A program made the position numbers and the translations under genes. A stretch of DNA of 64,000 bases from Sedimentisphaerales bacterium. GTDB taxonomy: Bacteria; Planctomycetota; Phycisphaerae; Sedimentisphaerales; SM23-30. The notes beneath the pieces were generated by a model. The model was not told where the DNA came from, did not search any database, and saw only the letters and a program-made list of their open reading frames with translations. The DNA lies in assembly GCA_963666285.1 (NCBI GenBank), contig OY762711.1; one strand, 5' to 3'. Below are positions 15,648-58,424 of the stretch, piece by piece. Within the stretch, counting starts at the first letter, position 1; every line of letters begins with the position of its first letter.

Positions 15648-15661
15648 TTATTTTCAGATAT

Positions 15662-15703
15662 TTTATAAATGACACCGGTAATAATACCGGTGTCATTTAT
15701 AAA
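15662..15703. terminator. Perfect 19-bp inverted repeat after the PEP-CTERM gene (terminator-like)
   Basis: TTTATAAATGACACCGGTA-ataa-TACCGGTGTCATTTATAAA. Confidence 0.7.
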
Positions 15704-15870
15704 CAAATAAAATAGAACAGTTATTAACATAACCTCTAAATTTCTTTTATAAATAGCTAAGTATTGTTTTTTTATCAAATAATGTGAGACAATAAGTTTC
15801 TACTAAGATATCGCTTTATTTGCTAAATTATTATATATATAGATTTTATAAAAGTAATTTTGAGGTTCAT

Positions 15871-16076
15871 TATTAGTGCGGTATCACACTTTTGACTGTT
15901 CAACATTACACGCAAAGGCCAGAACAGGGCCTTGTGAATGAAAAACTTTATATTTAAGTGTATTTCCGAGCTATTTCTCGAAAGTATATTTAATTCACAG
16001 CGTTGCAGGAAGGCCCTTTTAGGAGATTTACCAGAGGCTCTTCGTTATTGCAACTTAAAGACTGCGAAAGTTAACT
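15871..16076 (+). repeat. Dispersed structured element, copy 2
   Basis: Same conserved blocks as 2363-2579 (15887-15931, 15999-16076), with an unrelated but base-paired central insert. Confidence 0.85.
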
Positions 16077-16463
16077 TTTATATAAATAATACAATTGCAA
16101 ATACTTATTATTACTGAGTATTTTTATATATACAACAAGTATCGTTTATAATATTAATTACGAAAGAATTCTTATAACCTGTAGTTCTGAAACAGGTTGA
16201 ATCCGGCTAGAGTGTTAACAACTTATGACTGTCAGATCAAATAATTTTGTTGTGTCTAGATTTTTCTTTTTTATCTAAATTGAAACTAAGCTGTCTACTA
16301 AATCATAGTACGTATATTCCATGTTTTATAGATAGATAATATTTTGAATTAGATGTTAATTATGAATAGGTAAGAATTTATGCCTGGTTTTTATGCTGGC
16401 GGGTGCGTAGCCCAAAACACCAGGAATTAAATGATAATATTTTTCACTTTCAGGAGATCTGCT

Positions 16464-18554: not shown

Positions 18555-18589
18555 AAATTACCAATAAATATATCAGGAGAAATATAAAA

Positions 18590-19933: not shown

Positions 19934-19983
19934 TACCTCCTGTTCCAAGAAGTAATTAAATCTTAGAACAAAATTGTATTACC

Positions 19984-20017
19984 GGGCTCGTAAAGTAGAT
20001 TTACGGGCCCATTTTTT
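19984..20017 (+). terminator. Intrinsic terminator
   Basis: GGGCTCGTAAA-gtaga-TTTACGGGCCC followed by ATTTTTT. Confidence 0.8.
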
Positions 20018-20057
20018 ATATGTGGAAAGCTATATACCAGGCAAGGGATGGAACAGA

Positions 20058-21891
20058 CCTCGCTTCGCTCGGACCAGACATAGTCTGGACTAGGCCTCGC
20101 TTCGCTCGGAGACGAATTGAAATTGTAATGTCTAATAACCGTTCATTCTGAACGGAAAGGCCAGTGACAAATCGTTTTAATATTCTGTTTTTATTGAGCG
20201 TTGTTTATGTTTAAGACGAAGTTTTCGTCGTTGTTATGTTTTAACGAGAGCTGATTTTTGCTGGTAATCATTTTTTGTTGGCTCTCTACTATTGGAAGGT
20301 ATGTCGAAAGTGCGCTGATTTTATGGGTGGGATGGTTGGTGTGGAAATTTGTAAGGTGTTGGGGATAAGCGGGATAAAATTTTTGAAGATTTTAGATTTT
20401 CGCGTTTTGGTGGTTGTAAAAACGCGGTGATTTTTTCGAGAAAATCAGTGGCCAGGAATCAGGTTTCAGGTGCCAGGGAAGGTTGCTCGCTACCGATCGC
20501 GGGTAATTGATGGATGTCGGGAGGTGTGTGGGATATAAACGAGGCAGCGCGGCGGTGGGACGGCGGTGAAAAGGGTAACGGATTTGAGCGGCGGGGAATT
20601 GCGGGCTGCGGGCAGTATACGGCGGAACGTTGAATGGGTGCGGCGGTATACGGACGGGAACGGAGCGGAGACGCGGGAGGCAGGTAAAAAGTAAGAGGTA
20701 AGAGGTAAAAGGTGAGGTGTCTTGTACCGTACGGTACAGGACCTTATTTTAAGCGGCTGACGCCTTAAAAAAAGAGAACCACAGATGAACGCAGATGCAC
20801 ACTGATAAAGAAAGAAATGGAAAGCGTTTCTGAAGTATCAAGTATAAAGGATAAAGTATAAAAAATCAAGAGAGCTTGTCAGCAGCGAGTTGCCAGCGAC
20901 CAGCAACCAGCGGTCAGTTAAGAGGAAATACGTGCCGAGCGACGGAGGTCGCTGAATAGTTGACAGGAGAAAAGGAGAACAGGCAATCAGCTACGAGCTG
21001 CGAGCGGTCAGCTGCCAGCAGATAAAATTCGTGCTACGCACTCTGGCACATCATTGGATGAGTCCAATGATGTGAAGGAGTCGCTGACGCGACCTGTTTA
21101 AATAATGTGCCGAGCTTGTGCTCAGCGTTCCCAGGGGGAAAGAAGGTATTAGGTGTTGGGTATTTGGTATTAGGAAAGGTAACGGCTTCGCCGAGGCTAA
21201 TTGATATATAAGTGAGAGTATTGGGGTGAAGGATGGGTTAAAAAACGGAATGAAATTGAAGGGTGCGGAGATGTTATGCCGGGTGCGGGAAGAATAACGG
21301 TGGGCTGGGAATTTTGCGGGAATTGTTGTAAGTTGTTATTTTGGGTTTGTGGGCGGACCAGACAGGTGCCGTGAAGCGGCATCTGAAGTCTGAAGTTTGA
21401 AGTCTGAATTCTGAAAAGATGGTGTTCGCCTGGCGGCGAGCTACGCTAAATGAAAAATGAATAATTAAAAGTGAAAAATTAAGGTGTCCGCTTCGCGGAT
21501 GGCTTGTTTTAAATGGCTACCGCCGAACGACCGAAGGTCGTTAGAGATTAGAGCAGATGATAGTAGAACAGGCAATCAGCGACGAGCTACGAGCGGCCAG
21601 CGGTCAGCGGTCAGTGAAGAGGAAATACGTGCTGCGCACTCTAGCGGCGAGCGAACAGCAAGCAGCCAAGCTGCTAGAAATTATAATCTCGATGTGCAAC
21701 TGGATTTCGCTATGCTCAACAATTGGTACTCGTGGCGATGTTGGATTGGATGGAAAAAATATTATTCAGGAAGAATAAATCGGTTGCTCGCAGAGGCCGC
21801 AAAGCTCGCAAAGAATATTACTTGACCATGAAGGAAGTGAAGAGCTTGAAGAAAGAAGTTTAAATTAAGAATTCAAAATTAAGAAAACAAT
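20058..21891. repeat. Gene-free mosaic of short tandem repeats (7-10-mers) and mini-hairpins
   Basis: More than 12 degenerate tandem tracts, e.g. GGTAAGA 20683-20717, AGTATAA 20834-20861, GGTATTA 21145-21174, TCTGAAG 21382-21416, AAATGAA 21448-21482, 10-mer CACAGATGAA 20780-20806, 9-mer CTCGCAAAG 21787-21813; many hairpins. Confidence 0.85.
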
Positions 21892-21957
21892 TGTCTGGTC
21901 CTGTGATAAGTTGTCACATTATAGATTTAATGTTTTAACAAATAACAGGAGACAACA

Positions 21958-22377
21958 ATGTTGGTAAGTAAACGAACTTATAATCGCTACAGCGAAGCCT
22001 TTAAATTACAGGTGGTAAATGATCTTGAATCTGGTAAGCTAAGCAGTATTTATGAGGCTAATTCCCGCTATGGGATTTCTGGTACAACAACAGTAAAGAG
22101 TTGGCTAAGAAAATATGGCCGTAACCATTTGATACCAAAGGTGATACGCGTGGAAAAACTAGATGAACAAGATCATGTAAAGAAGTTAGAATCAGAGATT
22201 AAGCAGCTTAAAGAAGCGTTAGCAGACAGCCATATAGAGAATATTGTAAGTGAAGCCAGGTTTCAGGTTATTTGTAAAGAATACGGGCTGGATCCCGAGG
22301 AGTATAAAAAAAAAGTCGATACCAAACGGTTCAACAAGCGTCCGAGGCAACCGTTGAAAAGAAAGAGGAAAAAATAG
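21958..22377 (+). CDS. IS3-family transposase OrfA (HTH + coiled coil)
   Basis: RYSEAFKLQVV...YGISG.TTV..WLRKY; AGGAGA SD; A9 run at 22306-22314. Confidence 0.9.
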   Translation: MLVSKRTYNRYSEAFKLQVVNDLESGKLSSIYEANSRYGISGTTTVKSWLRKYGRNHLIPKVIRVEKLDEQDHVKKLESEIKQLKEALADSHIENIVSEARFQVICKEYGLDPEEYKKKVDTKRFNKRPRQPLKRKRKK

Positions 22378-23150
22378 CGATAACTTCCTTATGCAAAGCT
22401 GTTGGCATGAGTCGTCAGAATTATTATAAATCACATAAAGTTCGGCGCAGGCGGCACTATGAAAAAGACCTGATAATATCTTTGGCCAGGCTGGAAAGAT
22501 CATTGCAGCCTGAGATGGGTTGCAGAAAGGTTTTGAAGCGTATAAAGCCCAAACTGGCAAAAGCCGGTATTAGTATAGGGCGAGATAGATTTTATGAAAC
22601 GATGTCAGAAGCAGATATGTTGATAGAGCGTAAAAAGCGAAGTGTGACAACGACAGACAGTCGTCATAACTTTAAGACTTATAAGAATATACTGAAAGAT
22701 GAAGAGCTTACAGGAGCCAATCAGGCCCTGGTAAGTGATATAACGTACATATATACAGATGAAGGATTTATGTATCTGTCGTTGATAATGGATGCATTTA
22801 GTCGCAAGATAGTTGGCTATGACTGTAGTGATAGTTTGGAAGCAGAAGGTTGTTTGCGTGCATTAACAAAGGCGATAAAGCAATTGCCCAAAGGTAGTAA
22901 TACGATACATCATTCAGATCGTGGCAGTCAGTATTGCTGCCATAGATATATAGATAAGCTTAAAAGAAATGGGCTGCGAGTTAGTATGACCGAAGATAAT
23001 CATTGTTATGAGAATGCCCAGGCCGAGAGGTTAAACGGTATATTGAAGCACGAGTATGGATTGAAGAATACGTTTAAGAAAAAAGCTCATGTTCATGCTG
23101 CGGTTAAACAGGCGATAGAACTGTATAATACCTATAGAAACGGAAAGTGA
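22314..23150 (+). CDS. IS3-family transposase OrfB (DDE), reached by -1 frameshift; C-terminus looks shortened
   Basis: -1 frame open from 22314 (LCKAVGMSRQNYY), VSDITY, HHSDRGSQY, ENAQAERLNGILKHE; stop codon lies inside IRR. Confidence 0.9.
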   Translation, partial: SRYQTVQQASEATVEKKEEKIAITSLCKAVGMSRQNYYKSHKVRRRRHYEKDLIISLARLERSLQPEMGCRKVLKRIKPKLAKAGISIGRDRFYETMSEADMLIERKKRSVTTTDSRHNFKTYKNILKDEELTGANQALVSDITYIYTDEGFMYLSLIMDAFSRKIVGYDCSDSLEAEGCLRALTKAIKQLPKGSNTIHHSDRGSQYCCHRYIDKLKRNGLRVSMTEDNHCYENAQAERLNGILKHEYGLKNTFKKKAHVHAAVKQAIELYNTYRNGK

Positions 23151-23291
23151 CAACTTTAAATCAGGACTTGACAAATTGAAAAATAACCTCTCCATCAATA
23201 ATCTTTAATAAATTATGCCATGACAAAAATGCCAGGCTTAAACATATCTCTATATGTACCGACAGGTTAAACAAATACACGCCAATAATTA

Positions 23292-24254
23292 CTACTTTAA
23301 ATCTCTACCAACAACTAGCACATTAGGTAAATTTTCTTTTAAATATTGATAACCATGCTTTGTGATACCTGTCCTACTAATATTTAAGCTACCAAGCTTA
23401 GGAAAAGAAATAAGATTCTGTATTGAATTATCCGTTATCTTGGTGCCATCTAATGACAGATTTTCTAATTTTTTAATCCCTATTAAATGCTCAACTCCAA
23501 CGTCTGTTAGATTGGTATCACTTAGTTTTAATTTATACAGTTTTTCTAAATTCCGCAAATTTACAATTGCATCATCATCAATTTCCAAATTGGAAACAAA
23601 CAACTCTTCAATATTTTGGAAATTAAATATTTTTTGCATTCCACTATTTGTTACTTGCGTACCAGAAATCCTTAATGCTTTAAGCCCTGTAGTTCTACTT
23701 AACATTTCCTCCAAAGCAATATCACAAAAGTTTGTTTCATTTGCATTCAAACAACTCAAAGCGTATAAAACTTTATCTAATTTCAAGACACCTTGCGAAG
23801 AAATATTGTTTTTTGACAAAGCTAAATCGTTTAGATTATGAAGATTGCCTAAATAAACTAATCCTTCATCGGTAATCATATTACCATCTAACCATAGCGT
23901 ATCTAAAGACTCAATATTTCCTACATGTACCAAACCTTCATTATGTAAACTCACATTATCTAAATCCAGTAAATATATATTAACATTTTGAACTAATTTT
24001 AAAGCATCTTCATCAAACTGTGAGTCATGCAGGAAAACTGATTCAACCTTATTTAATTTTGAAATCACTTCAAAAATGGTTTTATCAACTTGACAATTTT
24101 CTAAATGGATAGATCCAATAGCATAGTATTTTCTCCAGCCCGGCAAATCCCACATATCCGGTTCTTTGAGATTATGTATAACCTCAATATAACCACCGGC
24201 AGCTTCAACTGCCTTCCTAACTTCTTTTAAAACTTTTCTATCTTCCATATACAA
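23292..24254 (-). CDS. Leucine-rich repeat protein
   Basis: Repeated LxxLxLxxtxItDxGLxxL units; visibly AT-rich relative to neighbours. Confidence 0.9.
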   Translation of the reverse strand: MYMEDRKVLKEVRKAVEAAGGYIEVIHNLKEPDMWDLPGWRKYYAIGSIHLENCQVDKTIFEVISKLNKVESVFLHDSQFDEDALKLVQNVNIYLLDLDNVSLHNEGLVHVGNIESLDTLWLDGNMITDEGLVYLGNLHNLNDLALSKNNISSQGVLKLDKVLYALSCLNANETNFCDIALEEMLSRTTGLKALRISGTQVTNSGMQKIFNFQNIEELFVSNLEIDDDAIVNLRNLEKLYKLKLSDTNLTDVGVEHLIGIKKLENLSLDGTKITDNSIQNLISFPKLGSLNISRTGITKHGYQYLKENLPNVLVVGRDLK

Positions 24255-24484
24255 CTAAGCCCTAATTATCTCTCTTTGTAAAACCATATATTTCTGAGTG
24301 ATAATGATAAGGGGAAAATGGGAACGGGTCAAATGGTATTTGTAAGGTGTTTGGATGTAGGCAGATTAAGGTGAAAATACCAAACTTGGTTAAAAGGTGT
24401 GCCATGATTGACTTTTGGGAAAGTGAGGCTAATAATAATTTTACGGTTTTTTTTGGAATAATTTTAGCTACAGGAGATTATGTA

Positions 24485-26029
24485 ATGTTTAAGTATGGTT
24501 ATTTCATATGGTTAATTGTAACATTAATATCAGTTATAAGTTTTGGTGCGAGCTGTCCGCCGCTGGATTTCGAGGAGCTGCCGTTAGATACGGCAGTTAC
24601 AAATCAATATACGGGCGTGACATTTTCGGTTCAACCACAAAGCTGCGTCGGTTCGCCAAAGCTTTATATGCGAGTTAAAGAGCCGACATCAGGCGGGACA
24701 TCATCAGGCGACAATGCGTTGATAATCGATACCGGTTGTCCTGATTTCAGCAGTGATTATCTCAGGATGGATTTTCAGCAGCTGCAGAGAAGTGTGAGCT
24801 TCTTCCTGGGAGCGATAGACGGCGGCAGCGGCATAGCATATAATGTTCGCAGCTATGACTCAAACTATACATTACTATCGTCAGTAATATACGTGAGCAC
24901 AACCGGGGTAAATAAGCTGGTAACCGTAGATAGTGATGATGGAACATTTAAGATAAAAAGGATCGAAGTGGAGTCAACTATTGGATACTGGGAGGCCATA
25001 GATGACCTGGTGTATGAGATGCCGGTAAATGTGATAATCGATTCTCCGACATTTCTCGAAACGGTCTGCGAGGAAGTAGACATCTACGGGATAGCCTGTT
25101 ATGGGTCAGGCGAAGATAAACTGGAATATTTGAAATGTACCGACCCGCCCGGAACGGACTGGACGCTGGTAAAAGAATATCATAACCCGGTATGCAGTTC
25201 AGGTTTATTGTATACCTGGGATACGACCGGTTTGGACCATGGCTATTATTATGTAAAAGTTACGGCGACTAATAGCTGTGGGTATTCGGCTTCCAATACG
25301 GTAACTGTTTTTGTCGATAAGCTTTTTAATACGGTTGAGATCCAATATCCCCAGCATAAAAGCATAAAAGGCGGTAACGCCCTGTGTATTTACGGTACAG
25401 CCTGGGATAACCATAGTTTCGATGAGTATACAGTTGACTACAGCGAGGATGGGTCAACATGGATGCCGGTAGATGCCGGTTCGCCCAGCTACAGTTCATC
25501 GAAGATCAATGAACGGCTGGCAACCTGGGACACAACCAGTTTGGCTGACGGTATATACCAGATAAAGGTAACCGGCGTGGATGAGTGCGGTAATGCAGAA
25601 GATGAGACATATAAGATCATAATTGATAATACTGTGCCGGTAGTAGATATCAGCAATCCATCCCCCTGCGATACAATAATCGGACCGGTAACGGTAAAAG
25701 GGATAGCGTATGATGACAATATAAGCAGATGGGTTCTTCAGTACACAGGCGGACCGTATGATGGCTGGGTAACCCTCGCGAGCGGTACAAGCAGCGTGTG
25801 GAAAGATACACTGGCAGTAATCGATACTTCAGGCTGGGACCCCTGCTGTTATACCCTGCGTCTGCGGGTATGGGACCAGGCACAACTTAACTGCATGAGT
25901 GATGATTATAATTATAATGAATACCTGGTATCGTTCAAGGTTGGATATATTGCAGATATTAACAATGACGGAAGGGTTGATATGGCAGATTTCAGATACC
26001 TGGCGGAACAGTGGCTGCTGGGAACTTAA
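24485..26029 (+). CDS. Secreted Cys-containing protein with three Ig-like repeats and a C-terminal dockerin-like tag (likely start ATG 24485)
   Basis: CAGGAG SD; signal peptide; three (W/I)DT(T/S)..(G/C).Y.(I/L/V)(K/R) repeats; ADINNDGRVDMADFRYLAEQWL. Confidence 0.8.
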   Translation: MFKYGYFIWLIVTLISVISFGASCPPLDFEELPLDTAVTNQYTGVTFSVQPQSCVGSPKLYMRVKEPTSGGTSSGDNALIIDTGCPDFSSDYLRMDFQQLQRSVSFFLGAIDGGSGIAYNVRSYDSNYTLLSSVIYVSTTGVNKLVTVDSDDGTFKIKRIEVESTIGYWEAIDDLVYEMPVNVIIDSPTFLETVCEEVDIYGIACYGSGEDKLEYLKCTDPPGTDWTLVKEYHNPVCSSGLLYTWDTTGLDHGYYYVKVTATNSCGYSASNTVTVFVDKLFNTVEIQYPQHKSIKGGNALCIYGTAWDNHSFDEYTVDYSEDGSTWMPVDAGSPSYSSSKINERLATWDTTSLADGIYQIKVTGVDECGNAEDETYKIIIDNTVPVVDISNPSPCDTIIGPVTVKGIAYDDNISRWVLQYTGGPYDGWVTLASGTSSVWKDTLAVIDTSGWDPCCYTLRLRVWDQAQLNCMSDDYNYNEYLVSFKVGYIADINNDGRVDMADFRYLAEQWLLGT

Positions 26030-26148
26030 TAACACGAACTTACCTGTGGCTAATTTGAGAGGTATCGTTGGGCACAAGGCGAAGAGTTGCTAAAGCAATT
26101 GATAATATAAGGTACTTCACAATATAATAACAAAGACATGTATTAAAA

Positions 26149-26190
26149 AAGGTCTGGCCCGTTACACAAACAGGTCAGACCTTGTATTTT
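26149..26190. terminator. Bidirectional terminator-like hairpin between convergent genes
   Basis: AAGGTCTGGCC...GGTCAGACCTT with A-tract before and T-rich tract after. Confidence 0.65.
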
Positions 26191-26209
26191 ACATATCAGG
26201 ACACATTTG

Positions 26210-29200
26210 CTAGATCCTGGTCGGGAATAATGCTTTCAGATCGCTGAAAGATGCCGAACTGTTGTATGTGCCGAGCCCCATGCCGCCATCTGTGACGGAG
26301 GAATCGAAAGTGAAAGCAACAGTCTTTGAGCTATCCAGCATGATACTGGCGACATTACCATTCAGCACGAGTCTGAGGCTATAGTCGGTATCCTTTTTGA
26401 GCTTAGCAGAGACCCTGGAATCGATAACCCAGCCATCTTCGGTTCTATGGCCGATTACCAGTTTATTCTTTGAAGCATTGATACCGGCAAATTTGAAGTT
26501 AGTTTCACTGACATAGTCGAAGATAATATACCCTTCAATCGAATAGCCGCGGCCAAGACTGTCGATATTGACAGTAGCAGAGATTTCAGAATAGTCAGCA
26601 AGTGTGCCGGAATCGAGCAGCTGCATAACAGCCTGAGTTTTCTTTTCGGTAACGGCGACCGTAACAGCTTCGTCCAGCAGGTCAGACTGTGAACCGGCCG
26701 GCATAGAAGAAAGGTCCAGCCTCATGCCGATAGCATGGTTGAATACCAGCTCTGCCCTGTCGGATATGGCAGAACTCTCAGTATCAAGCAGTACTTTGCC
26801 CTGAGAATCGATAGAATTGAACAGGAGGCCGCCGATAAGCTCGTTATAGGTTGGTGAAAGAGTATTAGATCCGCCATTGGAGATACTGCCGAGAACGCTG
26901 TCGATCTGGTCTTTACCGGTACCGCCGATAAGAACGGAATCTTCAGAGGTTGATGTCATAACATCATCGCCCCACTGGCCCAGGACAAGCGAAGCACCAT
27001 CAACACTAATATTTTCACTATCTATAGTGCTGGTACTGGCATCGTAATCCTGCAGGGTATGTTTAAGCTGCCTGGAAACATCCAGATTGGCAACATTAAA
27101 TTTGATATTTCTGTCCGGCAGATAGGTATCAGACAGGCCAGAGGTGACAATGCCAAAGATAGAAGCACTATCGCCAAAGATAATGTCCTGAGACGATGTA
27201 CTGACGATAGTATCATTACCGGCATTGAGGGTGATCTTTGTCTTGTTGCCGCCGCGATCGATGTAGTTGTTATGATGCCAGGTAGAAGGCGAGATAGAAT
27301 ACTGGGTGTCATACCTGTCATTGATAAAGGTTGACAGATCTTTGAGCAGGTTAGAAATATCCCTGTCAGCCAGTTTCTGATCTTCGTAACTGCCGAGGTC
27401 AACAACCGGAACTGCGATAACCGCAGCATTACCAAAGATTATATCCTGACCATCCTCGTTTTGGATGATATTGTTATGAATAGACTGGGTATAGCTGTAA
27501 TCCCAGGTAATATCATCAAGCTGGTTGTTGGCATATTTCAAACTGTCGAGTTTGAGTGAATTCTGATGTTTTTTGAGATCCTTGAGCCAATCAGAAGCAG
27601 ATTTGGCCAGTATGGAATCGACATTACTTACCAAAGAAGGGTCTATATCAGAATCATCACCGGCAGTATAAGGTCCGGCATCGACAGAAGCTGATATTAA
27701 TGTACCATTATCGCCAACAACGAGGTCGTTACCCAATCCGGAATCGATAATGTCGTTATTGACAACCAGAGCATGAAGGTCAGGATCAACCTGGTCGGAA
27801 GCGGCAATCTTATACTTTTTACTGTTTTCGGCACCAACATCCTCGATCATATCACCAATAACCTGATGGTGCATCTGGAATAAGGCTGAATCGATATCGG
27901 TTGCTACCCAGGCAGCATCCAGCAGATAGTCTTGCAGCTGTTTGGCCTGATCCATATACCTGTATTCGAGGTCCGGCATGCCATTGACGAAAGATTTTAC
28001 GATAAGACCGTCATCGCCAAAGATAATATCATCACCGGAACCGCCAATGACAGAATCGTTACCAACTTCGAGATAGTAGGTATCAGCATTTGCTCCGGTC
28101 AGGTATTCATAGTCAAGAGCCAGCCCTGAGAGACTGTAGGAAAGCTGCTGGATAGAATCCCAGACGGTATCCCTGGCGTCAGTTATGGAATCCAGCTCGT
28201 AGGTGAGTTCAGACTGGAAAGTACCGCCGTCGGCCATGACAAGGTCATCACCATCACCGGCTTCGATAATATCCCTGCCGTCGAGGACATCGGTATGCCC
28301 GGCGACATCAGGAATAATAGAGAAATACGGCCGGAGAGATGTACTGTCGTCGAGGGGTATATCAGAGACATCGTTATCCAATACATACTGCTGGACGCTA
28401 TCGGGCAGGACCGAACCTATAGCAGAACTGTAAACAAACGGAGAAGCAACATTGACACTCTGCGGTTCAATAGTGACCGGAGAAGACAAAACAGTACCGA
28501 GCTGGCTAATAACAACACCAGAGCCTTCCTGGGCAATATCAGCAATGAGCCTGACACCGTTGTAAATATACGGGAGATCAGAGTCGGTAGTAACAATATT
28601 AGACGCAGAATCGCCAAATATGGTATCATTGCCGTCGCTGCCGTAGAGATAATCGTCGCCACGATAGCCGAAGATATAGTCGTTGCCATCGCCGCCATCA
28701 ATAGTATTGGAGACAATCTGGAGGATATCTATGCCCAGCAGGTAAGTCTGCCAGGTATTGTCGCTGGTAACCTTGGAATTGTCCTGGTTAAACTGCCCTA
28801 CCGCAATGACCATATCAGATTCGAACAGCATAGAGGCAATAAGCTGATCTGCCAGATCAAGTCTGCCGCTGGTAGAAATAATGGAAGTAACCTGGGCAAT
28901 GTCTTCCAGCATAACATCTCTATGCCAGGAGCCGTCCTCGTTGATCAGCGGGTTACCGGAGTCATCATAGCCGCGATAAATAGTACCTTCATTGGCAATA
29001 AGAATATCGCTTTCGGAACCGCCTGAGATATCGTCACTGCCGAGACCGCCGATAATCTCATCGTTACCGGCATTGCCATAGATAGTATCATCACCATATT
29101 GACCGAAAATGCGGTCATCGCCGAGTCCGCCTGTGATAATATCATTGCCATAGACACCAGGGGTGACAAGATTGCGGGTAACATCGCGGATGACATCAGC

Positions 29201-32200
29201 AAATGGTTCTGGATAAGATAGCCACTGGTCGGAATCGTAACGCCTGCTTATGACAGCATTATCGCCAACAATAACATCTGCATCATCACCACCATCGATT
29301 GTATCGCTGCCGTCAACAGCGTCGAACATGTTGTGACCGCCGAAGATATCATCCTGACCGGCGTTACCATAGATAGTGTCATCACCCTGCTGGCCCATAA
29401 TGAAGTCATCACCATCGCCACCAGATAAGGTATCGTTACCACCGGTGATATCATCGGCCAGACTAACCATACGTTCGTTTGGATCTGCGGTACTGTTGTA
29501 TGAGCCGTAATCGCCAAGGATATGGTCGGAACCGGCACCGGCAGAGATGGTGTCATCACCAAGACCGCCAAAGATTACATCATCGCCCTGGCCGGTAGTT
29601 ACAGTATCATCATCACCAGAGAGATAATCAATAGTTTCGATTGTAATAGACGTTATGGCGGCATCAAGCGTATCGTATTGAGCCGAGGCATTGTCAGCAG
29701 CAACAAAAGCAGCTGTTTCAGCTTCAGCAGTGACATTGTCTTTACCAGAACCGGCAATAACAACGGCATGGCTGGAAGTAATATTAACAGTATCATCACC
29801 ATAATAATCCGGATCGACAGCCTGGACATTATACAGTACAAAACCGGTTTCAGAGTTACGGGAATACGTAATAGTTCCATTATCAGAAATAACAGAGCTC
29901 AGGCCGCCGGTAATAGTGATATCGTCACTGCCGGAACCGGCAATAACGTCGTTTATGCCAGTACCAAGTTCTATGGTATCATCGCCGCCGAGAGCAGTGT
30001 CTATTGCAGAGAAGTTTGTAATCAGTGCAGTATTATCGCTGCTCTCAAACTGGATAGAGGCCCGATCACCAGCGACAGTATGATTGCCGGTGGCAGCTTT
30101 GATGGTATCGGAGCCGAGCCCGCCAATGGCAACGAGGCTACCGATGAGTCCGTCAATGATATCATCGCCGAAGCCTGGTGCTTCGACTGAAGATATGTCG
30201 TTATAGAGCCAGATATTCTCAGCCGAGGTATTTACAGCGAGTCCATTACCAAGAACAAAGTTATCAGTTGTTACCAGGCCGCGGTCAGCAATAATAATAT
30301 CATCAGCCTGGGAGCCGGTAATGGTATCATTGCCCTGGCCGCCGAAGATAATAAGCGGCAGTGTAGACTGAGAGGCCTCGACAGTATCATTATCAGAAGC
30401 AGAACCGGTTAACAGATTTCTGCCCTGGGTATCAACGATCAGCCGACCATCTGAGCTATCGGCAAGAGATATGGCAACAGAGTCATCGCCAAGACCGGTG
30501 ATAAGACCGGTGACAGTCTGGATACCCTGGCGATAATGAGCGGCATCAATATTCACGGTATCGGCACCAGAGCCGAGGAAGTAAGTTATGCCGTTAACAA
30601 AATCGCCAGCCGGATTGGCGGAATAGCTAATAGTGCCGGGTGCCAGGTTTATGATGGAAATTTCGCCGCTGACTGCAGTATCATCTGGAGTGTTGGTAAT
30701 CCTGATATCATCGTAATCGGCAGTGTCGGATTCGTTACTAACCTGGAGAGTATGGCTACCGGAACCTGCGATAATGTTCAGATTTCCATTTATGGCATTT
30801 ACGTTGCCGGTGAGATAATCATTATGTTCGGCATTAGTCAAAGCCGCATCAGAAGATACATAAATACTTTCGTCACCATCATTCAAAGTGAGCGTGGTAT
30901 TAGCAGAGGTAGATTTGACATTGACAATTTCTGAGCCAAAACCAAGGTTGACATTGAGGAAAGCGATATTGTAATAATTTATCGCATCTTCAAGGGACAG
31001 GCCGGTAATGGCGTCCGAGGTGAGATTCAGGATATCATCATCAGTACTCGCGGTATTGTCAACATTAACGGTATCAAGACCGGAGCCATTTATAACGAGC
31101 AGGCTGTTAATGTCTGCGACAGTACCGTTGGTATCCGGAGCATTTGTTCCAATATTAACCTGGTCGGCACCAGCAGAATTATTAAGCTCGGTATAACCTG
31201 AAATTTTCTTAATATTGATCTGGTCGTTACCGACAGCAGAATTGATAATTGTCTTTTCCAGGTGGGTATCGATAATGTCAATAATATCATTTCCAGAACC
31301 GGCCAGCAATTCAATCTGTTCGAATGAAGTGTAGAACAGTCCGCTTTCTGAAAGGCCAAAGCCAGTGATGATATCGGCATTAAGAACAGCTGTATTGTCA
31401 ACAGTATCGCCGGAATCATCAAGATACAGGATATCTGAGCCGATACCGGCTTCCAATGCCAGGTAATCATCGATAGAATCAACAGTATTAGAATCATCGG
31501 ATATAGTGACAGTATCATCATCGGCACCGGTATCGAGGTTAAGCTGTCCCTGGATAGTCTTAATAGAAACAATATCATTACCAGAGTGAGTATTGATAGA
31601 GTTTGTGCCGGTAATGATGCTTTCAACTGTAACATTATCTGCCGCTTTGCCGGTGTTCAGGTAGAAGGCTTCGAAATCGGCATAAGTGATACTTTCGGAA
31701 AGATTACTGATGCCGAAACCGGAAACAGTATTGCCGGTGACAGTACCAAGGCTGTCGAGAGACTCGTCGGAATCATCGAAGAATATAGTGTCATCACCAC
31801 TACCGGCAGAAACTGCCAATGAACCGCTGATGTCGTTCAGCAGTCCGCTATTACCTGTAACGCTTTCAGTAGAATCATAGAGAGAACCAATGCTGACAGT
31901 ATCATTATCATTACCGGTATCAATTTGGATTTCACCGCTGACAGAAAGAATTTCGACAATGTCATCGCCACTATTGGATGAGATATTTGCAGCAGTTGAA
32001 TGGGTAGAGTGGACAGTAAACCTATCGGCACCATTGGAGAGGGAGATATCGATATTCTCAAGCTGTGAATAGTAGATACCAAACCCGCTCATGCCAAGAC
32101 CGGAGATCAGAGTATCAGTAAGCTGACCAATATTGGAGTTGTAATCACCAGAGTCATCAAGAGATAACAGGTCGGTTCCGGCACCACTGCCGGCGTAGAT

Positions 32201-35200
32201 ATTCAGCCTGCCGGAGATACTGTCGAGAGTACCGGAGGTATTCGAAGAATCATGAGCATTGGAACCAACGTTAATCGTATCAGAGCCGCTACCGGTATAG
32301 ATACTGGTAATATCGGTATCATTTCTCCTGACATTTATAATATCATTACCGGAGCCCAGGTAGATATTTGCATTTTCCATATCATGGAAGACTAAACCTG
32401 CCGGATATACAACATTACTAATAGTTGCAGAGTCTGGCAAATTGAAACCATAGAAATTATCACCGGTTAAAACACCACTCTGTGCGGAATTAACGCTGTC
32501 ATTATAGATATTCAGGGTATCCTGAGACTCCTGCTCATTTATGTCAATGCCGGTGTTATTATCGAAAGACTCATCATCTTCGTTTTCACCCGGCAAAGTA
32601 ACGGGATCATACAGGGCACTAAGATCATCATCCTGACCACTCCCACCTTCAATCCTGACAGGACCGTTTATGCCGTCAAGATTGTTATTGGCAACCAGGT
32701 TATCGCCAGAGCCGGTAACGACAAGATCGTTGAGATTTACACCTGCCGGTGCACCACCGATATTGAAAGTATCATTCCCGAAGCTGCCGAGCAGAACAGT
32801 TGAAAATACAGAGCTGGTAGAGAGAACATAGATACTATCATCACCAAGCTCACCGTCAAGCAGCAGGGTCTCAACGTTATTCATTTTAACATCAAGTCCT
32901 GCACCATAGATATGGTCCTCAGTGACAACAAAAATATCATCAAGCTCGGTACCAAAGAGTACAAGACGGTCGTTTCCATCACCACCATCAATATAAACAG
33001 GTGAATTTACGGCATATTTGAAGGTATCAACGCCCTGACCGCCAGAAATATTGGTTGTACGGTCAACGAAGGCACGAACAATAAAGGTATCATCGCCATC
33101 TTCGCCATTGAGGTTCAGAGTAGCAAGGTTATGATAGATATTAAATTCGTCATTACCATCACCAGAGTTGACAGTAGTTTCATAACTAACGCCATTGGTG
33201 AGATAACCCTGGGTAACCTTGATAGTAGCAGGTCCGGACGGCTGAGTTGCATAAAGCTGGCCGACCTGGATACGGTCTGCGCCGATTCCGGTGTTAATCT
33301 CTGTGAGAGCGGAATTATCATCTACTGCCACGGTATCATCGCCGTCAAGAGTATTGATAACCAGCTGATCGATAGCATTATTGTAAGAAATCAGCTCATA
33401 ATCATCGGCATAAAGCTGTTTGCCGTACTGATTGAAGCCGTCCGGATGGACCAGAGCGATATAGTCCAGGCGTGACAGTAAGGTATCGTCATTGCCTGTG
33501 GCATTGACAGTGAGGGTATCAGAACCAGTTATGCCGGAATCGAGTATGCTTATATCACTGCTGCCGGTACCTGAGAGATTTATAGTATAGCTATCAGAAC
33601 TATTAGCACCATCGAGCAGCCAGCTTTGAATACCGACGGTATAAGAGACTGTATTTATTACAAACTGATCGCTAGCGGTATTGCCGTATGCCTCGAGCGG
33701 CACATTAAACACATTGTTAATTTCGATGTAAGTACCGGCATTCTGACTGTCACTATCACCCTGAAGGACAATTTTCTGAGCGTTTTGGACACTATCACTA
33801 TTGTAAACATAAATATCACCGGGAACATTAAACCTGACTGTGCCGGATGGAGCCTTGATAAGATTGTCACCACCGGACAGCGATAAATCATTGCCGGAAA
33901 CCTTAGAACGATTAATAGTAAAGGTAATATCGCCGGCGGCCGATTCCATGACAAGATTATCAGTCAGGGTAAATGAACCGCTACTGTAAGCAATATCGAT
34001 ATTATTCAAGGTATTTATATTCAGTACCGGGCTATTGGCAGTATTGAAAGTAAAATCAAGGTCACTCTGGGCAGAACCAACCGCCCCGTTTGGAGCAGAG
34101 ATAAGTATATTGTCAGAAATTAGATCTCTAACAGAATCGACGATATCGTCAAGAACAGAGCCGTTATCAGTGGATAGCACAATAGCAGTATCAGATGAAA
34201 CAGTACCAACAATTATATTACCATTTGAGGTATGGATATCAACCGTACCATCAGCTGAAATTGTACCAATAACAAGGTCGGCAGCATTGAACTGTCTGGT
34301 TCCTTTGCTGATCGAACCTTCATCCTGATTGATAGTAATATCGCCCGGAGCATAAGCTGAAAGAGTACCGGTTGCGGCAATAGTAACATTAAACGGTGAA
34401 ACACCGTCAGTACTTTCGATATCGCCGGAAGATATAAGTATAACATCATCCAACGTGGCAACAGCACCGCCGGAGGAAGCAGCATCATCGAGAATACTAC
34501 CGTCAGAGACAATCCTGACTTTCCCATTCGAGTGAATTCCGGCTATAGAAATATCACCCTCTGTTTCCAGAGCAACACCACCTGCAGAATCAACAATTAT
34601 GGTTCCAGAAGCTTTAACATTGACATCAGCCCAGGTTTGTAATACCAGGCTGGTAACAACATTTATATCAGCTACAATCTGGCCGGATTTGAGGTCGGCT
34701 GTACTGCCGGAGGCATTGGTATAGTCATAGCTGAAAGGTTTCCAGGTCTGCTGATCGGAATAATCCTGGGCAGCCAGGTTAACTGACCCGTTTGCTCCCT
34801 GGTATTCATACAGGCCATACCTGGCACTGTCATACTGCATCAGTACAAGCTGGCCGGTATTAATTGAAACAACCTGATCTGTTTTTTCCAGATTGGTAAT
34901 GAAATCATAATTTATCTGAGTCCAGCCCGGATCAGTAAAGTCAACCATAGACAGGTCAACAGAATTTGCATTGGAGCCAGAGTAAACATACATGGCATAC
35001 TGGAAGCCAAAGATATCATCAACGGTTGCAGATGCCAGCAACTGTTTCTGGCTGTCAGTCAGCAAAGGATCATCAAAACCATTTGACAGGTCGATATAAA
35101 CCGGCTCGGTAATAAAGCCTACCTGACTATCAGTGCCAGAAGTTGTTATTGTAATATTATTGGCAGAAATATTCAGTAACTCTGCAGAAGAACCAGTACT

Positions 35201-38200
35201 GCCACGAACATAGGCGTCAGGATAAAGATATTTCATCAGGGACGGAGACAGAACAAAATCTGCACTCTGGAGTTCGCCGTCGGCAATTTTGGCCTGAACT
35301 TCAGGCGTCAGGTCGGCGGTATTAATCACTGAAGATGGGTTATACTGTTCGGAAATACTATCCAGAACAGAACCGGAAATCACATCAAGAACAACATCAC
35401 CGGTTTCAGAAAGAATTGATATATCAACATTATCTCTATACTCAGGCTGAAGCAGGTTAAGATCTCCGGCGACTTCGGTAACATAGATATCACCATCAGA
35501 CAGAACAGACAATCCTCCGGAACCGGCAACATCGCTATCGATCAGAAGCGGCTGAGCAGCAGAACCTACAGAGCCGTTATCAGCATATATTTCAATTCGA
35601 TTACCAGAAATAATCGAGTTCTGATCGTAAGCGATAATACCATCAGGAGCATTAATATAGATATTACCATCAGTAGTGATAGACTCAACACGAAGCTGGT
35701 TGTCATCGCTGCCGGTAGAAATAACGTTAATAACAATATCACCGGTAGTATTGAGGTTAATCGGGTCATGACCACCCTCAACATTTATAACAACAGAACC
35801 TGCCGCCAGAACCGGGTCAGTATCAGCCTTGGAAACTGAAGAAGTTTTTGTAGTACTGCCGGTAATAATTGTCGGTGAAACGCCAAACACCGCTACAGTA
35901 TCAACCCCAGAGATAGAACCGGATTTTGAATTTAAGGTAACACTGCCTTGCTCAGGAGAGGTAATATTTCCCTGCATGTAGATTGACCCGACACTGGTAA
36001 TGTTAATCGAAGGTGTATCAGAGCCATGGACAAATGTAATATCAATCGGATAATCAGCTTTGAGGGCATGCGTATAATAATCTACCTTACCGCTGATCTC
36101 TGTTATCTTGGTATGGACGGTTTTTTTCCTGAGCCAGCCACCGCCGGTAGTCCACTGAACCACACTGTAGGAACTATTAACATAGTCCTTGTCATATTTA
36201 TCTAAAGTCGGATCTTCGAATTGATCGCCAACAACAACCCCATTAGGCGTCCATAGAGTAGTATCAGTAAAATCTACGGTAGATAACAATACACTATCAA
36301 TCTGTTCGGTACCGGTAAATTTATAAACAACAAAGTTGGTATCTCTTACCTGGGTAACACCCGGTACAAGGTCTACCCCGGTATTGTCCTTCTGCTCGTA
36401 ATCAATGGCATACACGGTACCATCAGCATAGTCAGGCATCTCACTTGTACCAGCCATAACCAGTGATTCAGATTCAAGCAGCGGCTGACCGTCAATATAT
36501 TTAGTTACCTGCCAGGCATAACTGTTATCCTTACTGAGCCAATCAGCGAGGGCATTATCACCGAAAAGGTTGAAGCTGTTCTTTTCATACTTAGTAACAG
36601 TAACATCAAGCAGTTCCTGCCCCTCGACCCAGACATAATACAGGCCTTCCCTGGTTTCATATTGAATACTATCATTTATGCCATGAGTTGCAGAAGCGTT
36701 TTGGTCAAGTGTGTAGCTGATGGTAGAGACAATACCACCTTCAGAAGAGCCGGTGGAAGTCTTTTCGCCATTATATACATTTTCCAGGACAGTATCACCG
36801 CTAACTACATATTCGGTTTTGACAAGGGTAGCAGTATCAATAATAGTAATCTTACCAACCCGGTCTGTTGTAGTATCAATTTCACCAAGTATAAGCTCAT
36901 AGGCACTATTGTTAACAATTTCGACACTGGTATAGCCATGAGCAACACGGATTTCGCCGTTGCCAGTACTCATTATCTGACCAGCCAGAGTGATATTGCC
37001 ACCAGCTGGAATAATATCGTCAAGTACGATAGCCTGCTTAGCAGCATCGAAATAGCCATCAACCGGAACATTATACTCACCGAAAGAAAGGCCATCCAAA
37101 GCGTTGCCTTTGGCATCTGTGAAAGTAACAGTCTGATTGCCAGGATTGAAATCAGCATCAATAGTAAGAGTGATAGTATCAACACCACTCTGGATCAAGC
37201 CGTTAACATTGAGATAACGAGCGGTAATGGATATGTTACCCTGGGCTAGGATAGCCGAACTGCTCTGGTCAATTGCATCATCCAGCCCGGAAACACCACC
37301 GGTATAACTATAATATGTAATTGGATCGGAGCTGTTGTAGGCAGATTCTCTGAGTGCGGTATAGTCGATATACTGGCGAGGATCGCTGCCAGTATGGAGC
37401 CAGTCGTCCGAGTTCAGATTGAAATCAACACCAGCATGGATTTCAACCTGCTCAGCCCTAATTTCGCCATTTACGTTAATACTACCCTCAACATTACTGA
37501 TATATACATCACCATTTTCATTTACTATATCACCGGTAACATAAATATCCTGACTGATAGAAGGCAGATCAAGACTGCCCAGATCATAAGCACTTGCACT
37601 ATAAGCATCCTGATTAACAGTGATTTCCTTGACGGTATCGGTATCGGTAACACTGGTAAGCTGGTTGTTATTGACATAGACATTACCAGGCTGCTGAACG
37701 GTAAATATACCATCAATAATAGTAACTTTCTTATTATCGCGGATTACAGTATCATTCAGCGACATGGTAAACGGAGTCTTGTTGAGTATCTCAATCTGAG
37801 CCCCGCTGCGAGCAACAAGCTGAGTGCCAACAAGATAGTCGTAGTCAGAAGAATCCTTGCCGTCAACATCAATAAAAATTGAGCCCGGTACAGCATATAT
37901 TTCCGGCAGCTCAATAAATACTGTGTCAAGTTCGGTATTAATAACAGTCGTGGTCTGGCCGTTACTGGTAACGGTTTCAAGCAGGCCAAGATCAGTTAGA
38001 GCCTGGTCAATCAGGTCGAGCTGGACCTGGTAACGTGCCAGTGCCTCAGAATTTGTGGAATGGCTAACCATCCACTGGACGATAGTATTTCGCTGCTCAA
38101 CAAGTAAATTACCCATATTCACAAATGATAAGGTCGGTGCATCCATAGCAACCGGCTTGATAACATAGAATTTACCCTGCAATTCATCCTTGAATATGGC

Positions 38201-41200
38201 AGTAACATCACTGTCATAAACGGCATTATCTTCTACCTGTTCATCTGTCAAGGTTGCGCCAAGATGTTCCCACCTGGAGGTATCAGAGAAATCTTCATTC
38301 TGCAGAATAATACTATCAGAATTGCTTTCCAGCGAATTCAGGTCAGAGTCAGAACCAGAGCCGATATAGCTGTAGTAATGATCGACAATGCCACCGCTGT
38401 TATAACCGGAGATAACTTTAATTATCGTATCAGATGTAATATTGAAGCTAATATCATCAAGGTTTATCGCGGCATATTCATAATTCAGACTGACATCGAG
38501 GCCTAAATCGGCTTTTTCACTATCAGTTAGAGGCTGGCCTAACCTAGCAGGGTCAAGCTGAGCTTCACCATTAAGGGTCATAGGCAGAATATGCAGGAGC
38601 GTAACATTGTTTACACCGGCTTCAATACTGACAGTATCCGCGATTGTAACATCATTTACACTGGAAACAGATTTTTGGCCGGTAACCTCTTCACCATAAG
38701 GGATAAGAGATAATGACAGCGATAAACCGCTGGTAGCGGCCCTGTCAGAACCGCCCAGCCCTTCTACGGCGGTAAGCTGAACATCTTCGAGCGACCGGAT
38801 AATGGTGTTTCCGGTCAGATTGACGGTATTAGTCTCGGCGATATACGACTGCGGGTTCGGCAGTACGATATTTGGTGCCAGAGAAGCAGCTGTCAGCTCG
38901 GTATTGGCAAGGCTATCGATCAGATTTGGAATCAAACCGCTGCTTTGACCGGCGAATATGTTGATATCGCTGCCCTTGATAGTTGAATTATTAACTGTGA
39001 TGCTATTATCAGCGTGAGTATCAGCTTTGGCCTCGGCAGAAACCAGTGTGGAAACGGCCGCGATAGAAAGCATATTAGCGGAAGGATTGGCACTTGAGTT
39101 TGTCTTTGCCCCAAGAGAAACATCGCCAGAGACGTTTTCCAGGACCGCACCATCAAGGTTAATGGAGCTGTCGGTATAGGTCGTAATAACAGACTCGCCA
39201 ATCGAGAGGCCAAGCCCGGAAACAGTTTCGATCCTGATATTATCGATAGCCAGCACATCAGTTAAGGCATCGATCTGGATTATGCCGGGCGAGGAATTGC
39301 TGCCATTGGCTTTTAGCGTTGTGCCCTGTCCGACATTAACAACGGCCTGGAATTTATCATCAGATTTACCAATATCAGTAGAACTTATTAGAACAGACAC
39401 ATTGCCAATCCCGGCAGAACCGGTACGCAGGTTGCTGGAATCGGCATAGCGGTCTTTAACCAGCTTATTAACGGCATTGATAATGATAATATCAGCATCA
39501 ACAGAGGTATTTTCGCCAATATTTATATTCGCGGAGGTATAGATATCATTGTAAGCACCGGCACCAGCACCAGCAGCCAGGCCAAAGCTATAACTATCGG
39601 CACTGGAATCTACATCCTGCAGGTGATATGCGGTCAGCTGGATAGTATCAACATTTATATCAATATTGTCGCCCAGCTCAACAAGTGTATCCAACTCATC
39701 TGAGATACTGGAATTTGCACCGGCGATACCAATAGCACCGGCTGCACCGGCAACAGTATGGACATGGAGGTCATCATCACTATCAGCATAAACTGTAAGG
39801 AATGAGGTGGAAATAACAGCGTTATCCTTAATAGAGGCTTTAACAGCCCCCTCGGTAACGCTAATATCAGCTACCATAGCACCAATGGCCACACCACCGG
39901 CAGAGCCGCCATCAGCACTGGCTTCAGCGGAAATAGTCGAGACAGCTTTAACCGTTACAGAGTCATTGGTATAAATATCAGAATTACCAATATAGGCATG
40001 AGCCGACGGATTAACAGTTACGAAATTAAACGCGCCTGTACCGGCAACAATACCGGCGGCACCGGAATATACTTCGGCCCTAATATCGGCATCGATCTCG
40101 GCAAAAACTTCAAGATCGTCAACGAGCGACAGAGTCTGCTGGCCAACTTCAACACCATCTGCAATATAGGCATTAACATCGGTTGTATAGGTTGATACAG
40201 CAACAACACCGCCCAAGGCAACAAGACCAAGCGAACCGGAAACACCTTCGGTATGGATATACGGTGAGCTTAAAGCGTGAACAGTTGCCTTTTGTGCCTG
40301 GGCGATCAGTGAACCTGAGCCAATATATGCATTAACCGAACTTTCGATAGTATTGACAACAACCGAGCCGCCGAGAGCAATGGCACCAGCCTGCCCGCTA
40401 AAGGTCAGGTTGTCAATTTCAGCATTATCCGCAGCGTATACTGTGATATCGCTATCGGTCCACAAATCACTTCCGTTTACATAGGAATTTATATCGATAT
40501 CTATCGTATTTACCGAGATGGATGCTCCAACAGCACCAAGCCCGATCTGGGCAGCTCCGGCAACACCTTCGATATAGGAATTGTCTTCGGCTGAAACAGT
40601 TATATCGCCGGAAGCATAAATCTCTGAGCCATTGGTAATACAGGCCCTGGTATCGTTAACTATGGTATTGACAGAAACAGAACCGCCGACAGCTATCATG
40701 GCACCCTGACCGCTGGCAGAGATATTTTTGATATAAGGTGAATTATCAGCATAAACAGTCAGTATATTCACATCGGATACTTCAGTATTGTCAATATAGG
40801 CCTGCAGGTTGTTAGCTATGGTATTGACAGGTACCGCTATGCCATAGGAAGCCGCCGCCGCCAGCTGCACCGAACCGGCAATTGCCTCGATATGGGAATT
40901 ATCAGTTGCAGTGACATATACCCCGTCACTAATCAAATCGGAATTTTCTACTGAGGTAATATTAGAATCGACAATATACGAATTGACATCGTTTACGACA
41001 GTGTTGACAGCTACCGAGCCTCCCTGTGACGCAGCGGCCGAGAGCTGGCCGGAAACCGCAATATTAGCAACCGAGGCATTATCAACGGTCTCGACGCTAA
41101 CCTTTTCAGAAGCCTTAACAGTTGAATTTTCGATATAGGCGTTTATATCTTTAACCGAGGTATTTACAGAAACTGCAACACCCATAGAGGCACCACCGGC

Positions 41201-57796: not shown

Positions 57797-58424
57797 GGCA
57801 GCACTCCTGGGTATTTCAAAAATTATTTTTAATGTGTTAAGACACTTATTTTTATATTATTATAAACATGCCTGATAAATAAATTTACAGACATAGATTT
57901 ATATACTTTAAAACTGAAATAATGACCTTCAATAATATTTATTTTCTGTATTTAGTGAAAGCCGCACTCTTCTCAGCCCTGATAATTTTAAGACTCCCCA
58001 GGCAGAATAAAACCTTAACCGGCAGTTTCTCTGATCAAAATATCTCAATAATTTTTGCTAAGAGTAATTACCATCAAGATTTAAATCATATATTCTGCAA
58101 ATATTAATTATATGAAATGAAAGAAGGAAAAACAAATTTAATTCCATTTTTTGCGACACCAAACAAAAAGATAACAGACGACACAAGAGGTTATTGAGCA
58201 ATAGCTTATGAGCATTTACCCAATAAGAAAAAACCTAAATATACTTGCAATAATTGGAATTAAAATGCACAAATTAACAGACAATTTGCATTTAAGGTTT
58301 AAGATAGGTAATCTATGCAAAAAAAATGTCATTAGAATACAAGCATTTATTGTATAAACATTTAATAATTTATTAATATGATTATTTCATCCGCGACTTT
58401 GCTACTGCAATATGTGTAGTTTTT

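Follow-up and report, generated by a model that had tools for sequence, protein, structure and literature searches.

The array and its surroundings

The window, i.e., the whole 64,000-nucleotide stretch of DNA analyzed here, corresponds to G000:C1:3136001-3200000, where G000 denotes the genome under study. A run of related, secreted-looking proteins occupies 14880-19933; that encoded at 14880-15647 presumably has a PEP-CTERM-like tail, and that at 18590-19933 has a weak DNRLRE domain match. Downstream of this run lies an array of short repeats, the parts of which, with the zone that follows, are listed below.

19984..20017, +: hairpin and T-run resembling a terminator, for the gene upstream (18590-19933)
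20036..20178, +: optional 5' module, two 37-nt ACCAG..CTCGCTTCGCTCGG copies and a spacer, common to some other copies
20179..20675, +: conserved leader ("starter"), 30 copies, with a sharp AATATT left end and a CGG-rich 3' half
20449..20502, +: exchangeable tract-plus-hairpin module inside the leader; some copies have an AGTGAAG module instead
20683..20770, +: GGTAAGA tract and AGGTGTC-hairpin-TTTTAA junction
20776..20864, +: AGTATAA tract, and a 10-mer tract of the type that accompanies GxxExxY genes in relatives
20879..21100, +: CAGCGA-type tracts, CACATCATTGG hairpin and junction
21107..21370, +: GGTATTA tract and ~170-nt G-rich module ending GTAAGTTGTT..GACCAGA
21382..21640, +: junction hairpins and three tracts (TCTGAAG, AAATGAA, the second CAGCGA)
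21643..21891, +: segment of low copy number, AAATTAA tract and a pair of 9-mer tracts
21892..23173, +: insertion of an IS3-family element where the array ends, 1242 of ~1412 bases matched
24000..60000, +: downstream purine-excess zone on the + strand, +0.12 to +0.24 per 4 kb at fourfold sites

The leader holds two local hairpins and three G(C/G)TGATTT-type repeats, and the GACCAGA end of the ~170-nt module also heads leaderless starters. The IS3 copy in the window is missing ~170 bases near its right end. Leucine-rich-repeat-like ORFs lie directly past two arrays (window 23292-24254, - strand, and the element at C1:3048356); the two are similar and have opposite orientation relative to the leader.

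The original prediction, made from the letters of the window, had listed 13 tandem tracts in this region, and all 13 are present where it placed them (lag-match 0.56-0.86). They comprise the heptamer tracts yCAGGnn (20452-20479), GGTAAGA (20683-20717), AGTATAA (20834-20861), GGTATTA (21145-21174), TCTGAAG (21382-21416), AAATGAA (21448-21482) and AAATTAA (21862-21882), three CCAGCGA-type tracts (20879-20920, 20988-21022 and 21577-21615), a 10-mer tract (20780-20806) and two 9-mer tracts (21787-21813, and nnnnTGAAG at 21825-21851). TRF returned nine period-7 rows in the 64-kb window, eight of them within 20682-21885; the region has eight period-7 tracts, whereas 300 dinucleotide shuffles averaged 0.01 and never exceeded 1. 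The 9- and 10-mers, at only ~3 copies, fall below the threshold of the shuffle test when taken alone (0 observed) and recur in other copies of the element. The + strand of the region is short of C (G 566, A 531, T 450, C 287). Tracts do mostly sit beside hairpins, in that most are followed by an AGGTGT-hairpin-TTTTAA junction, found 204 times genome-wide versus 30 times in the reversed genome.

The region had also been described as free of ORFs, which is nearly right, although three ORFs of 61, 73, and 113 aa exist; a PDB search with the 113-aa ORF returned no match. A single decayed gene is ruled against by indels, by shuffled modules, and by the lack of a PDB match. A CRISPR array had rightly been set aside: rather than a constant repeat with unique spacers, there are many tract types, and the spacers are themselves repeats. 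No Rfam family reached its gathering score in the array region.

Short-read contigs from X1 and X2 matched without difference over 17000-20096, which runs from the upstream flank into the array, and over 133- to 200-bp pieces of the array, and the depth of the repeat in short reads was ~40 times that of single-copy DNA (X1 repeat-to-flank ratio ~40). No X1 or X2 contig spans the array, so that the internal order of modules stands without independent confirmation. Misassembly as the source of the array is disfavored, and the array is confirmed as a real feature. A further run (X3), compared at window 20012-21900 and at L016, has the same sequence; in it, unique DNA was patchy (~0-30x), leaders summed to ~2000-3400x, one 290-bp array piece reached 140x, and a tRNA-like stretch exceeded 20000x, contig depths that cannot show expression.

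A family of 30 oriented elements

A BLAST search with 20179-20675 gave 35 matches, of which 30 extended over 300 bp at 80 to 91% identity. Each leader copy begins at the sharp AATATT end and heads a gene-free element of 606 to 1896 bp after IS removal (median 1277; 30 elements). The conserved leader, its 30 copies, and the 40-kb skew described below were missed in the earlier sequence-only reading. Modules within the elements hold a single orientation, with 6210 same-strand matches and four opposite-strand matches of at least 35 nt, all of one hairpin. The string of modules differs in 30 of 30 elements; 458 of 518 pairwise orders follow the majority (88% versus 64% for the null), indicating a shared backbone in place of an accretion order. 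As anticipated, the modules have numerous counterparts elsewhere in the genome.

Leader alleles form a patchwork, in which linkage falls from an r2 of 0.63 below 5 bp to 0.18 at 20 to 40 bp and 0.03 beyond 160 bp. Among distant site pairs, 92% fail the four-gamete test, the patches that copies exchange are tens of bases long, and leader variants comprise 208 transversions versus 173 transitions. Junctions carry a 28-nt hairpin insert in filled (47) and empty (101) forms, and a 23-nt hairpin insert is likewise found filled (5) and empty (28). An empty/filled pair is also seen between window 20166-20190 and G000:C1:2208040 (- strand), with CGTTTT on both sides; at the latter site, a tract-hairpin unit of ~140 bp is inserted just 5' of the leader. 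Insertion sequences collect in the same places: eight of nine IS3 copies, and six of nine copies of a second family that we take to be IS110-like, lie within 4.5 kb downstream of a starter, DNA that makes up 5.1% of the genome. Several IS3 copies are inserted at junctions, and the TGTC-beginning ends of IS3 resemble the junction AGG-TGTC, a likeness that may explain the targeting of IS3.

Inspection of whole elements by eye revealed neither terminal repeats nor target duplication at their ends, and the right ends are ragged. No leader homologue was found in 40 relatives, which gave short module matches only, and exact motifs had no match in the metagenome, genome, or viral contigs covered. The leader shows no extended conserved fold, and neither the conserved covarying fold nor the Rfam match of a structured noncoding RNA was found. 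G000 encodes two reverse transcriptases of 450 aa and one split reverse transcriptase. Three other contigs of this genome, C2, C3, and C4 (65-67 kb; L011-L014), are related and encode a tyrosine recombinase each; on C4 there is also an ORF of 4905 aa, together with a block of cargo genes whose products look secreted. Judged by their ORFs, C2-C4 resemble phages and not conjugative elements.

Heptamer tracts had been said to flank four-helix-bundle genes, and the 9/10-mers to flank GxxExxY genes. Both associations hold in relatives, where a heptamer tract lies within 200 bp of six of the seven four-helix-bundle genes examined (7 of 18 matches fetched) and a 9/10-mer tract within 200 bp of eight of the 13 GxxExxY genes examined (13 of 19 matches fetched; both are raw counts with no random-gene control). 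At three of these seven four-helix-bundle genes the heptamer tracts form inverted arms, and 9/10-mer and 7-mer tracts in relatives are often palindromic arms. In G000, four of 10 four-helix-bundle matches have a TRF heptamer tract within 250 bp, as compared to 8% of all ORFs, and no GxxExxY gene was found. Neither family was found in G144, a genome from another family of bacteria, yet it has similar oriented mosaics and the strongest skew. Array modules resemble the purine-rich arm of four-helix-bundle/GxxExxY arm pairs; the arrays carry this arm only, never the inverted pairs of an armed cassette, and paired arms were found in G001 and G003. Repeat-armed cassettes of this sort did not turn up in the literature searched. 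Y1/REP transposases had been expected beside modules, but none of five Y1 matches was module-flanked within 350/450 bp. At G000:C1:45310-46200, a four-helix-bundle gene is present as two tandem copies and part of a third, and every junction between them carries a 14-mer tract.

Strand composition around leaders and other starters

Skew was measured at fourfold-degenerate sites outside repeats and normalized for replichore (ori ~5.74 Mb, ter ~2.70 Mb) and for the direction of genes. The purine residual on the leader strand is ~0 beyond 4 to 6 kb upstream, +0.09 at the leader, ~+0.10 out to 20 kb downstream, and +0.02 by 40 to 60 kb, with onset ~3 kb upstream of the leader and an average fade over ~40 kb. 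It is positive downstream of 30 of 30 leaders and exceeds the upstream value at 27 of 30 (p 4.7e-8). The G-C residual is +0.098 (null SD 0.019, maximum 0.06 in 2000 draws). For the copy in the window, the purine residual is +0.18 downstream versus +0.04 upstream; its 24000-60000 zone lies mostly inside one long antisense ORF, and the 20-24 kb bin is -0.06. That ORF (26210-57796, - strand; 10,528 aa), which makes up most of the skewed zone of this copy, has glycine/aspartate-rich repeats that we take to be RTX-like.

The base shift does not differ between sense genes and antisense ones (A +.05, G +.05, C -.035, T -.065). Calculated C:T and G:A ratios barely move across it, such that the shift needs transversions; transitions cannot produce the purine gain. 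Replication forks in G000 leave a G+T replichore signature, unlike the purine (A+G) zones, and the upstream ramp (-5 to -1 kb) depends neither on which way the upstream gene points nor on whether the orientation is leading or lagging. Transcription-linked skew is ruled out by the independence from gene direction, and inversions between replichores by the wrong base signature. Codon selection by gene function was rejected on orthologue skew correlations of -0.46 with G003 (n = 58, 25 of them in a near-identical island), +0.21 with G001 (n = 136), and +0.46 with G144 (n = 30, from half of the fetched loci). IS copies inside zones gave no sign of current hypermutation: over 37 kb they had 49 private differences, 35 being transitions, with no excess of change.

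A composition scan added 40 noncoding CGG-rich tracts of many families (U -0.017, D +0.093, D>U in 35/40), a step that is partly circular, as these starters were picked by G-rich composition; 95 coding matches of the scan lie inside zones (U +0.059). De novo detection gave 121 step peaks, of which 66 with D of at least 0.07 were kept and 55 dropped. These 66 zone starts fall at leaders (16; 4.7% by chance), at leaderless arrays (16), at other modules (18), or at no repeat (16). One leaderless starter, G000:C1:5850137-5851122, lies ~0.5 kb past a tyrosine recombinase match. A family of ~72 copies is oriented inside zones without a step, and 222 of 233 dispersed tracts follow the local sign of the skew. 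Five inverted pairs of same-family starters, 88 to 96% identical and 3.0 to 4.2 kb apart around ordinary genes, were found versus 0.26 expected.

A single kernel placed on 70 starters accounts for 34 to 35% of 2-kb variance versus at most 0.4% for eight shifted nulls, with scales of 2.2 to 2.9 kb upstream and 39 to 45 kb downstream. A "catch" kernel is no better than additive or max kernels (0.344, 0.341, 0.354). Skew before the second of two same-direction starters is below expectation in eight of nine pairs, three of which have weak first starters. Starters are not leading-strand biased (33/59 leading), and their words are mostly not the top over-represented ones; the top 8-mer, GCGCGGCG, is 47% leading. 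Single short motifs (G[GC]TGATTT, GTAAG..TT, CCAGA) were rejected as the trigger, with little or no step outside starters. The word GCAGGGCG, presumably a KOPS-like motif, has 194 copies in G000:C1, 94% of them on the leading strand.

Among 301 genomes, the junction hairpin is multicopy in four (G000 31, G001 16, G144 12, G199 77; others at most 4). Over the 800 kb mapped, G144 forms a patchwork of zones whose G-C residuals reach 0.7, and it has an unrelated G-run leader in 10 copies, five of which were first seen at zone starts; in a held-out test, a switch of sign ~3 kb upstream was found at all of the other five, from mean G-C values between -0.11 and -0.27 to values between +0.18 and +0.38. 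Its base signature differs from that of G000 (G +.20, C -.17, A -.05, T +.02). ORFs directly past a G144 leader at a zone start (L074; G144:C1:885000-889600) are, by their starts, presumably cas9-, cas1-, and cas2-like. G003 has zones with oriented mosaics. In samples of 100 to 800 kb, the purine SD per 5 kb is 0.096 in G000, 0.105 in G003, and 0.121 in G144, and 0.058 in G001, 0.031 in G031, and 0.026 in G037. The modules of G001 form inverted pairs of arms, and no step accompanies them. Nor does the AGGTGTCGC hairpin suffice by itself, as little or no skew is seen at 13 sites in G001 and three in G199. Gene profiling gave distributions of AddB, DnaE, Y-polymerases, ComEC, GxxExxY, and four-helix-bundle genes that do not track zones. 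The polarity of zones at orthologues is inconsistent between genomes. A ~47-kb island of 25 genes (G000:C1:4843668-4890019 and G003:C1:753700-799000; L105-L107), bounded by tyrosine recombinase matches, has proteins 98 to 100% identical between G000 and G003, two species of one genus, and was shared recently (>99%). The island is unskewed though it interrupts a G003 zone, indicating that skew builds slowly in place.

Interpretation and comparison with known systems

The genome thus presents oriented elements with a leader, modules, and a fine patchwork, and a one-sided, transversion-type skew with its geometry. From these we infer that one defined strand is repeatedly made or exchanged from the starters. 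Our preferred reading, held at a probability of roughly 0.4, is that the 30 mosaics are start sites of one-way, recombination-primed, error-prone DNA synthesis. A break-processing enzyme such as AddAB, coming from downstream, would be switched at the G-rich starter in a Chi-like manner; the 3' strand would then pair 0 to 5 kb upstream of the starter, and new synthesis of this strand would proceed back across the starter as far as the break. Purine-purine mispairs, a step that draws on the mispair preferences of polymerases, or strand-specific mismatch repair would yield the transversion skew. Template switching near the primer would shuffle modules, retain none but the purine-rich arms from the ends of four-helix-bundle/GxxExxY cassettes, and leave inverted starter copies 3 to 4 kb upstream.

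Repair synthesis is favored because the two arms of the skew match a pairing tail and a gap to be filled, because skew drops before the second starter in eight of nine pairs, and because G000 encodes AddA of the Gram-positive type and a homologue of AddB; the genome also has MutS, MutL, and Y-family polymerases. Counted against it are the lack of leading-strand bias among starters, the IS copies without extra change, kernels that are indistinguishable, the differing base signatures of G000 and G144, and the 16 of 66 zone starts without a repeat. AddB and Y-family polymerases are present in G031 and G037, zone-free in 100-kb samples, and a lineage factor is therefore missing from this account. 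Chi activity falls off over 2 to 3 kb. Break-repair hotspots in Escherichia coli decay out to ~60 kb by resection and gap filling, and are symmetric around the break, whereas the zones here are one-sided (PMC3607216).

An alternative that we regard as unlikely, though it deserves weight, is that starters are auxiliary one-directional origins, possibly R-loop-primed by a G-rich transcript, from which a nonstandard polymerase copies tens of kb. The sharp divergent jumps, slow convergent decay, and leading-strand-like G>C signature of G144 speak for it, as do a G-rich, C-poor strand and element hairpins with 37 G-T versus eight A-C mispairs (raw counts, uncorrected for composition), and R-loops can prime forks in E. 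coli (PMC3715873). However, the A/T shift of G000 is opposite to that of normal forks, onset falls 1 to 5 kb upstream whatever the direction of upstream genes, RNase H is present, and the leader lacks an extended conserved fold.

Slightly less probable again is that starters are entry points for one strand of incoming DNA (by transformation, transduction, or conjugation), with unequal mismatch repair biasing conversion downstream. Biased repair of heteroduplexes would be expected to give a pure purine/pyrimidine shift, the patchwork is fine grained, ComEC and MutS/MutL are present, and NIME arrays have been proposed to promote exchange of flanking DNA (PMC1797815). Weighing against entry, no MOBP/MOBF relaxase and no VirB4-type match was found in G000, G003, or G144, ComEC occurs in seven of seven genomes tested, and the upstream DNA in which the skew sets in is unrelated and shares no nick site.

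It is doubtful that the repeats are passengers, selfish sequences settling in orientation where a separate process makes zones strongest. The ~72-copy family without a step, the zone starts at no repeat, and the partly circular choice of the 40 CGG starters would be accommodated, but leaders were identified by homology, ahead of any skew measurement, and account for 16 of the 66 starts versus 4.7% by chance, the ~3-kb offset recurs in an unrelated family in G144, held-out copies included, and orthologue zone polarity is inconsistent between genomes. Most improbable is the main reading of the original prediction, that the arrays are an accumulation site or stack of empty cassettes from a four-helix-bundle/GxxExxY mobilization system, or an RNA to which those proteins bind: the arms of such genes in relatives have matching tract types, 280 of 304 tracts have 4 to 5 copies, one G000 gene (C1:5096210) lies inside such modules, the nested 23- and 28-nt hairpin inserts exist in filled and empty forms, and IS elements gather in arrays, but GxxExxY is absent from G000 and both families from G144, arms are single only, and the leader and 40-kb skew are left unexplained. 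Overall, that interpretation was partly supported.

One-way synthesis from starters may extend beyond this genome. With rather less than an even chance of being right, we propose that several bacteria of the order carry dozens of oriented, noncoding starters that launch one-way synthesis or strand exchange over ~40 kb, independent of oriC, transcription, and gene content, that multiply by inverted copying 3 to 4 kb upstream, and that rewrite the base composition of most of the chromosome. If true, this would be a second, distributed replication or diversification system in bacteria. Strand skew in bacteria is commonly attributed to two forks that leave a single origin; the skew found here is larger, differs in chemical type, and runs from dozens of repeats, one way through ordinary genes, in three genomes of two families, which points to an unrecognized, directly testable strand-specific DNA process with mapped start sites. 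Long-unexplained intergenic heptamer repeats would also gain context, with paired arms where zones are weak or absent among the sampled genomes and single purine-rich arms where they are strong.

Several known systems share parts of this anatomy. Intergenic mosaics of hairpins and small motifs are known as REP/BIME with TnpA-REP in E. coli, and cyanobacterial STRR and SDR comprise intergenic heptamer tracts and tiny hairpins nested in tracts and in each other. Neither the alternating palindromes of REP/BIME nor a TnpA-REP gene flanked by modules was found here. Short intergenic heptamer tracts, as here, also occur in Beggiatoaceae (TAACTGA; PMC4679880); relative to such repeats, the present arrays stack many tract types behind a leader, and all go with a skewed zone. 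NIMEs (dRS3 and RS arrays) are gene-free arrays in which a short hairpin-like repeat alternates with varied spacers, are dynamic and IS-collecting, and are proposed to promote flanking recombination (PMC1797815). The arrays here compare in their junction hairpins between varied spacers and in the IS collected downstream of starters. A 500-bp leader, heptamer tracts, strict polarity, and one-sided 40-kb skew have no counterpart in the available part of the NIME account (PMC1797815). By inspection, the dRS3 sequence ATTCCC-N8-GGGAAT is absent, the junction motif here being AGGTGT..TTTTAA.

Integrons differ in that no ORF cassettes are present, and none of 20 tyrosine recombinase matches falls in the window. 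A search for Y2 transposases (IS91/Helitron-like) gave no match, with an equally silent control, and PF03432, PF08751, and PF03135, sought as companions of an oriT, are absent from G000. Segmental gene conversion among repeats and strand-specific G enrichment liken the elements to Borrelia vls, which is one coding antigen locus, whereas here dozens of noncoding sites send skew into ordinary genes (PMC3585125). As an oriented, G-rich signal with one-sided action, Chi with RecBCD/AddAB is like the starters (bioRxiv 2021.07.08.451572 and PMC5041463), and repair synthesis over tens of kb at break-induced mutation hotspots is like the proposed zones (PMC3607216). The Bacillus subtilis Chi, AGCGG, has a GCGG core in common with G000 starter words. 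Measured as composition, the effect here is one sided and orientation dependent. Chi is a dispersed, leading-strand-biased 5-8-mer, whereas ~70 clustered noncoding elements in both orientations here leave a lasting compositional footprint. In a limited literature search, covering few subscription papers and no supplements, skew zones initiated by repeats were not found described for bacteria. In its workings the element resembles both a NIME/BIME mosaic and a Chi-type polar signal, yet lacks defining features of each. Its anatomy alone is a variant of known mosaic repeats, and the claim to novelty rests on the start-site property and on that limited search. New here are the geometry of the skew around its start sites, its transversion signature, and its test in further genomes.
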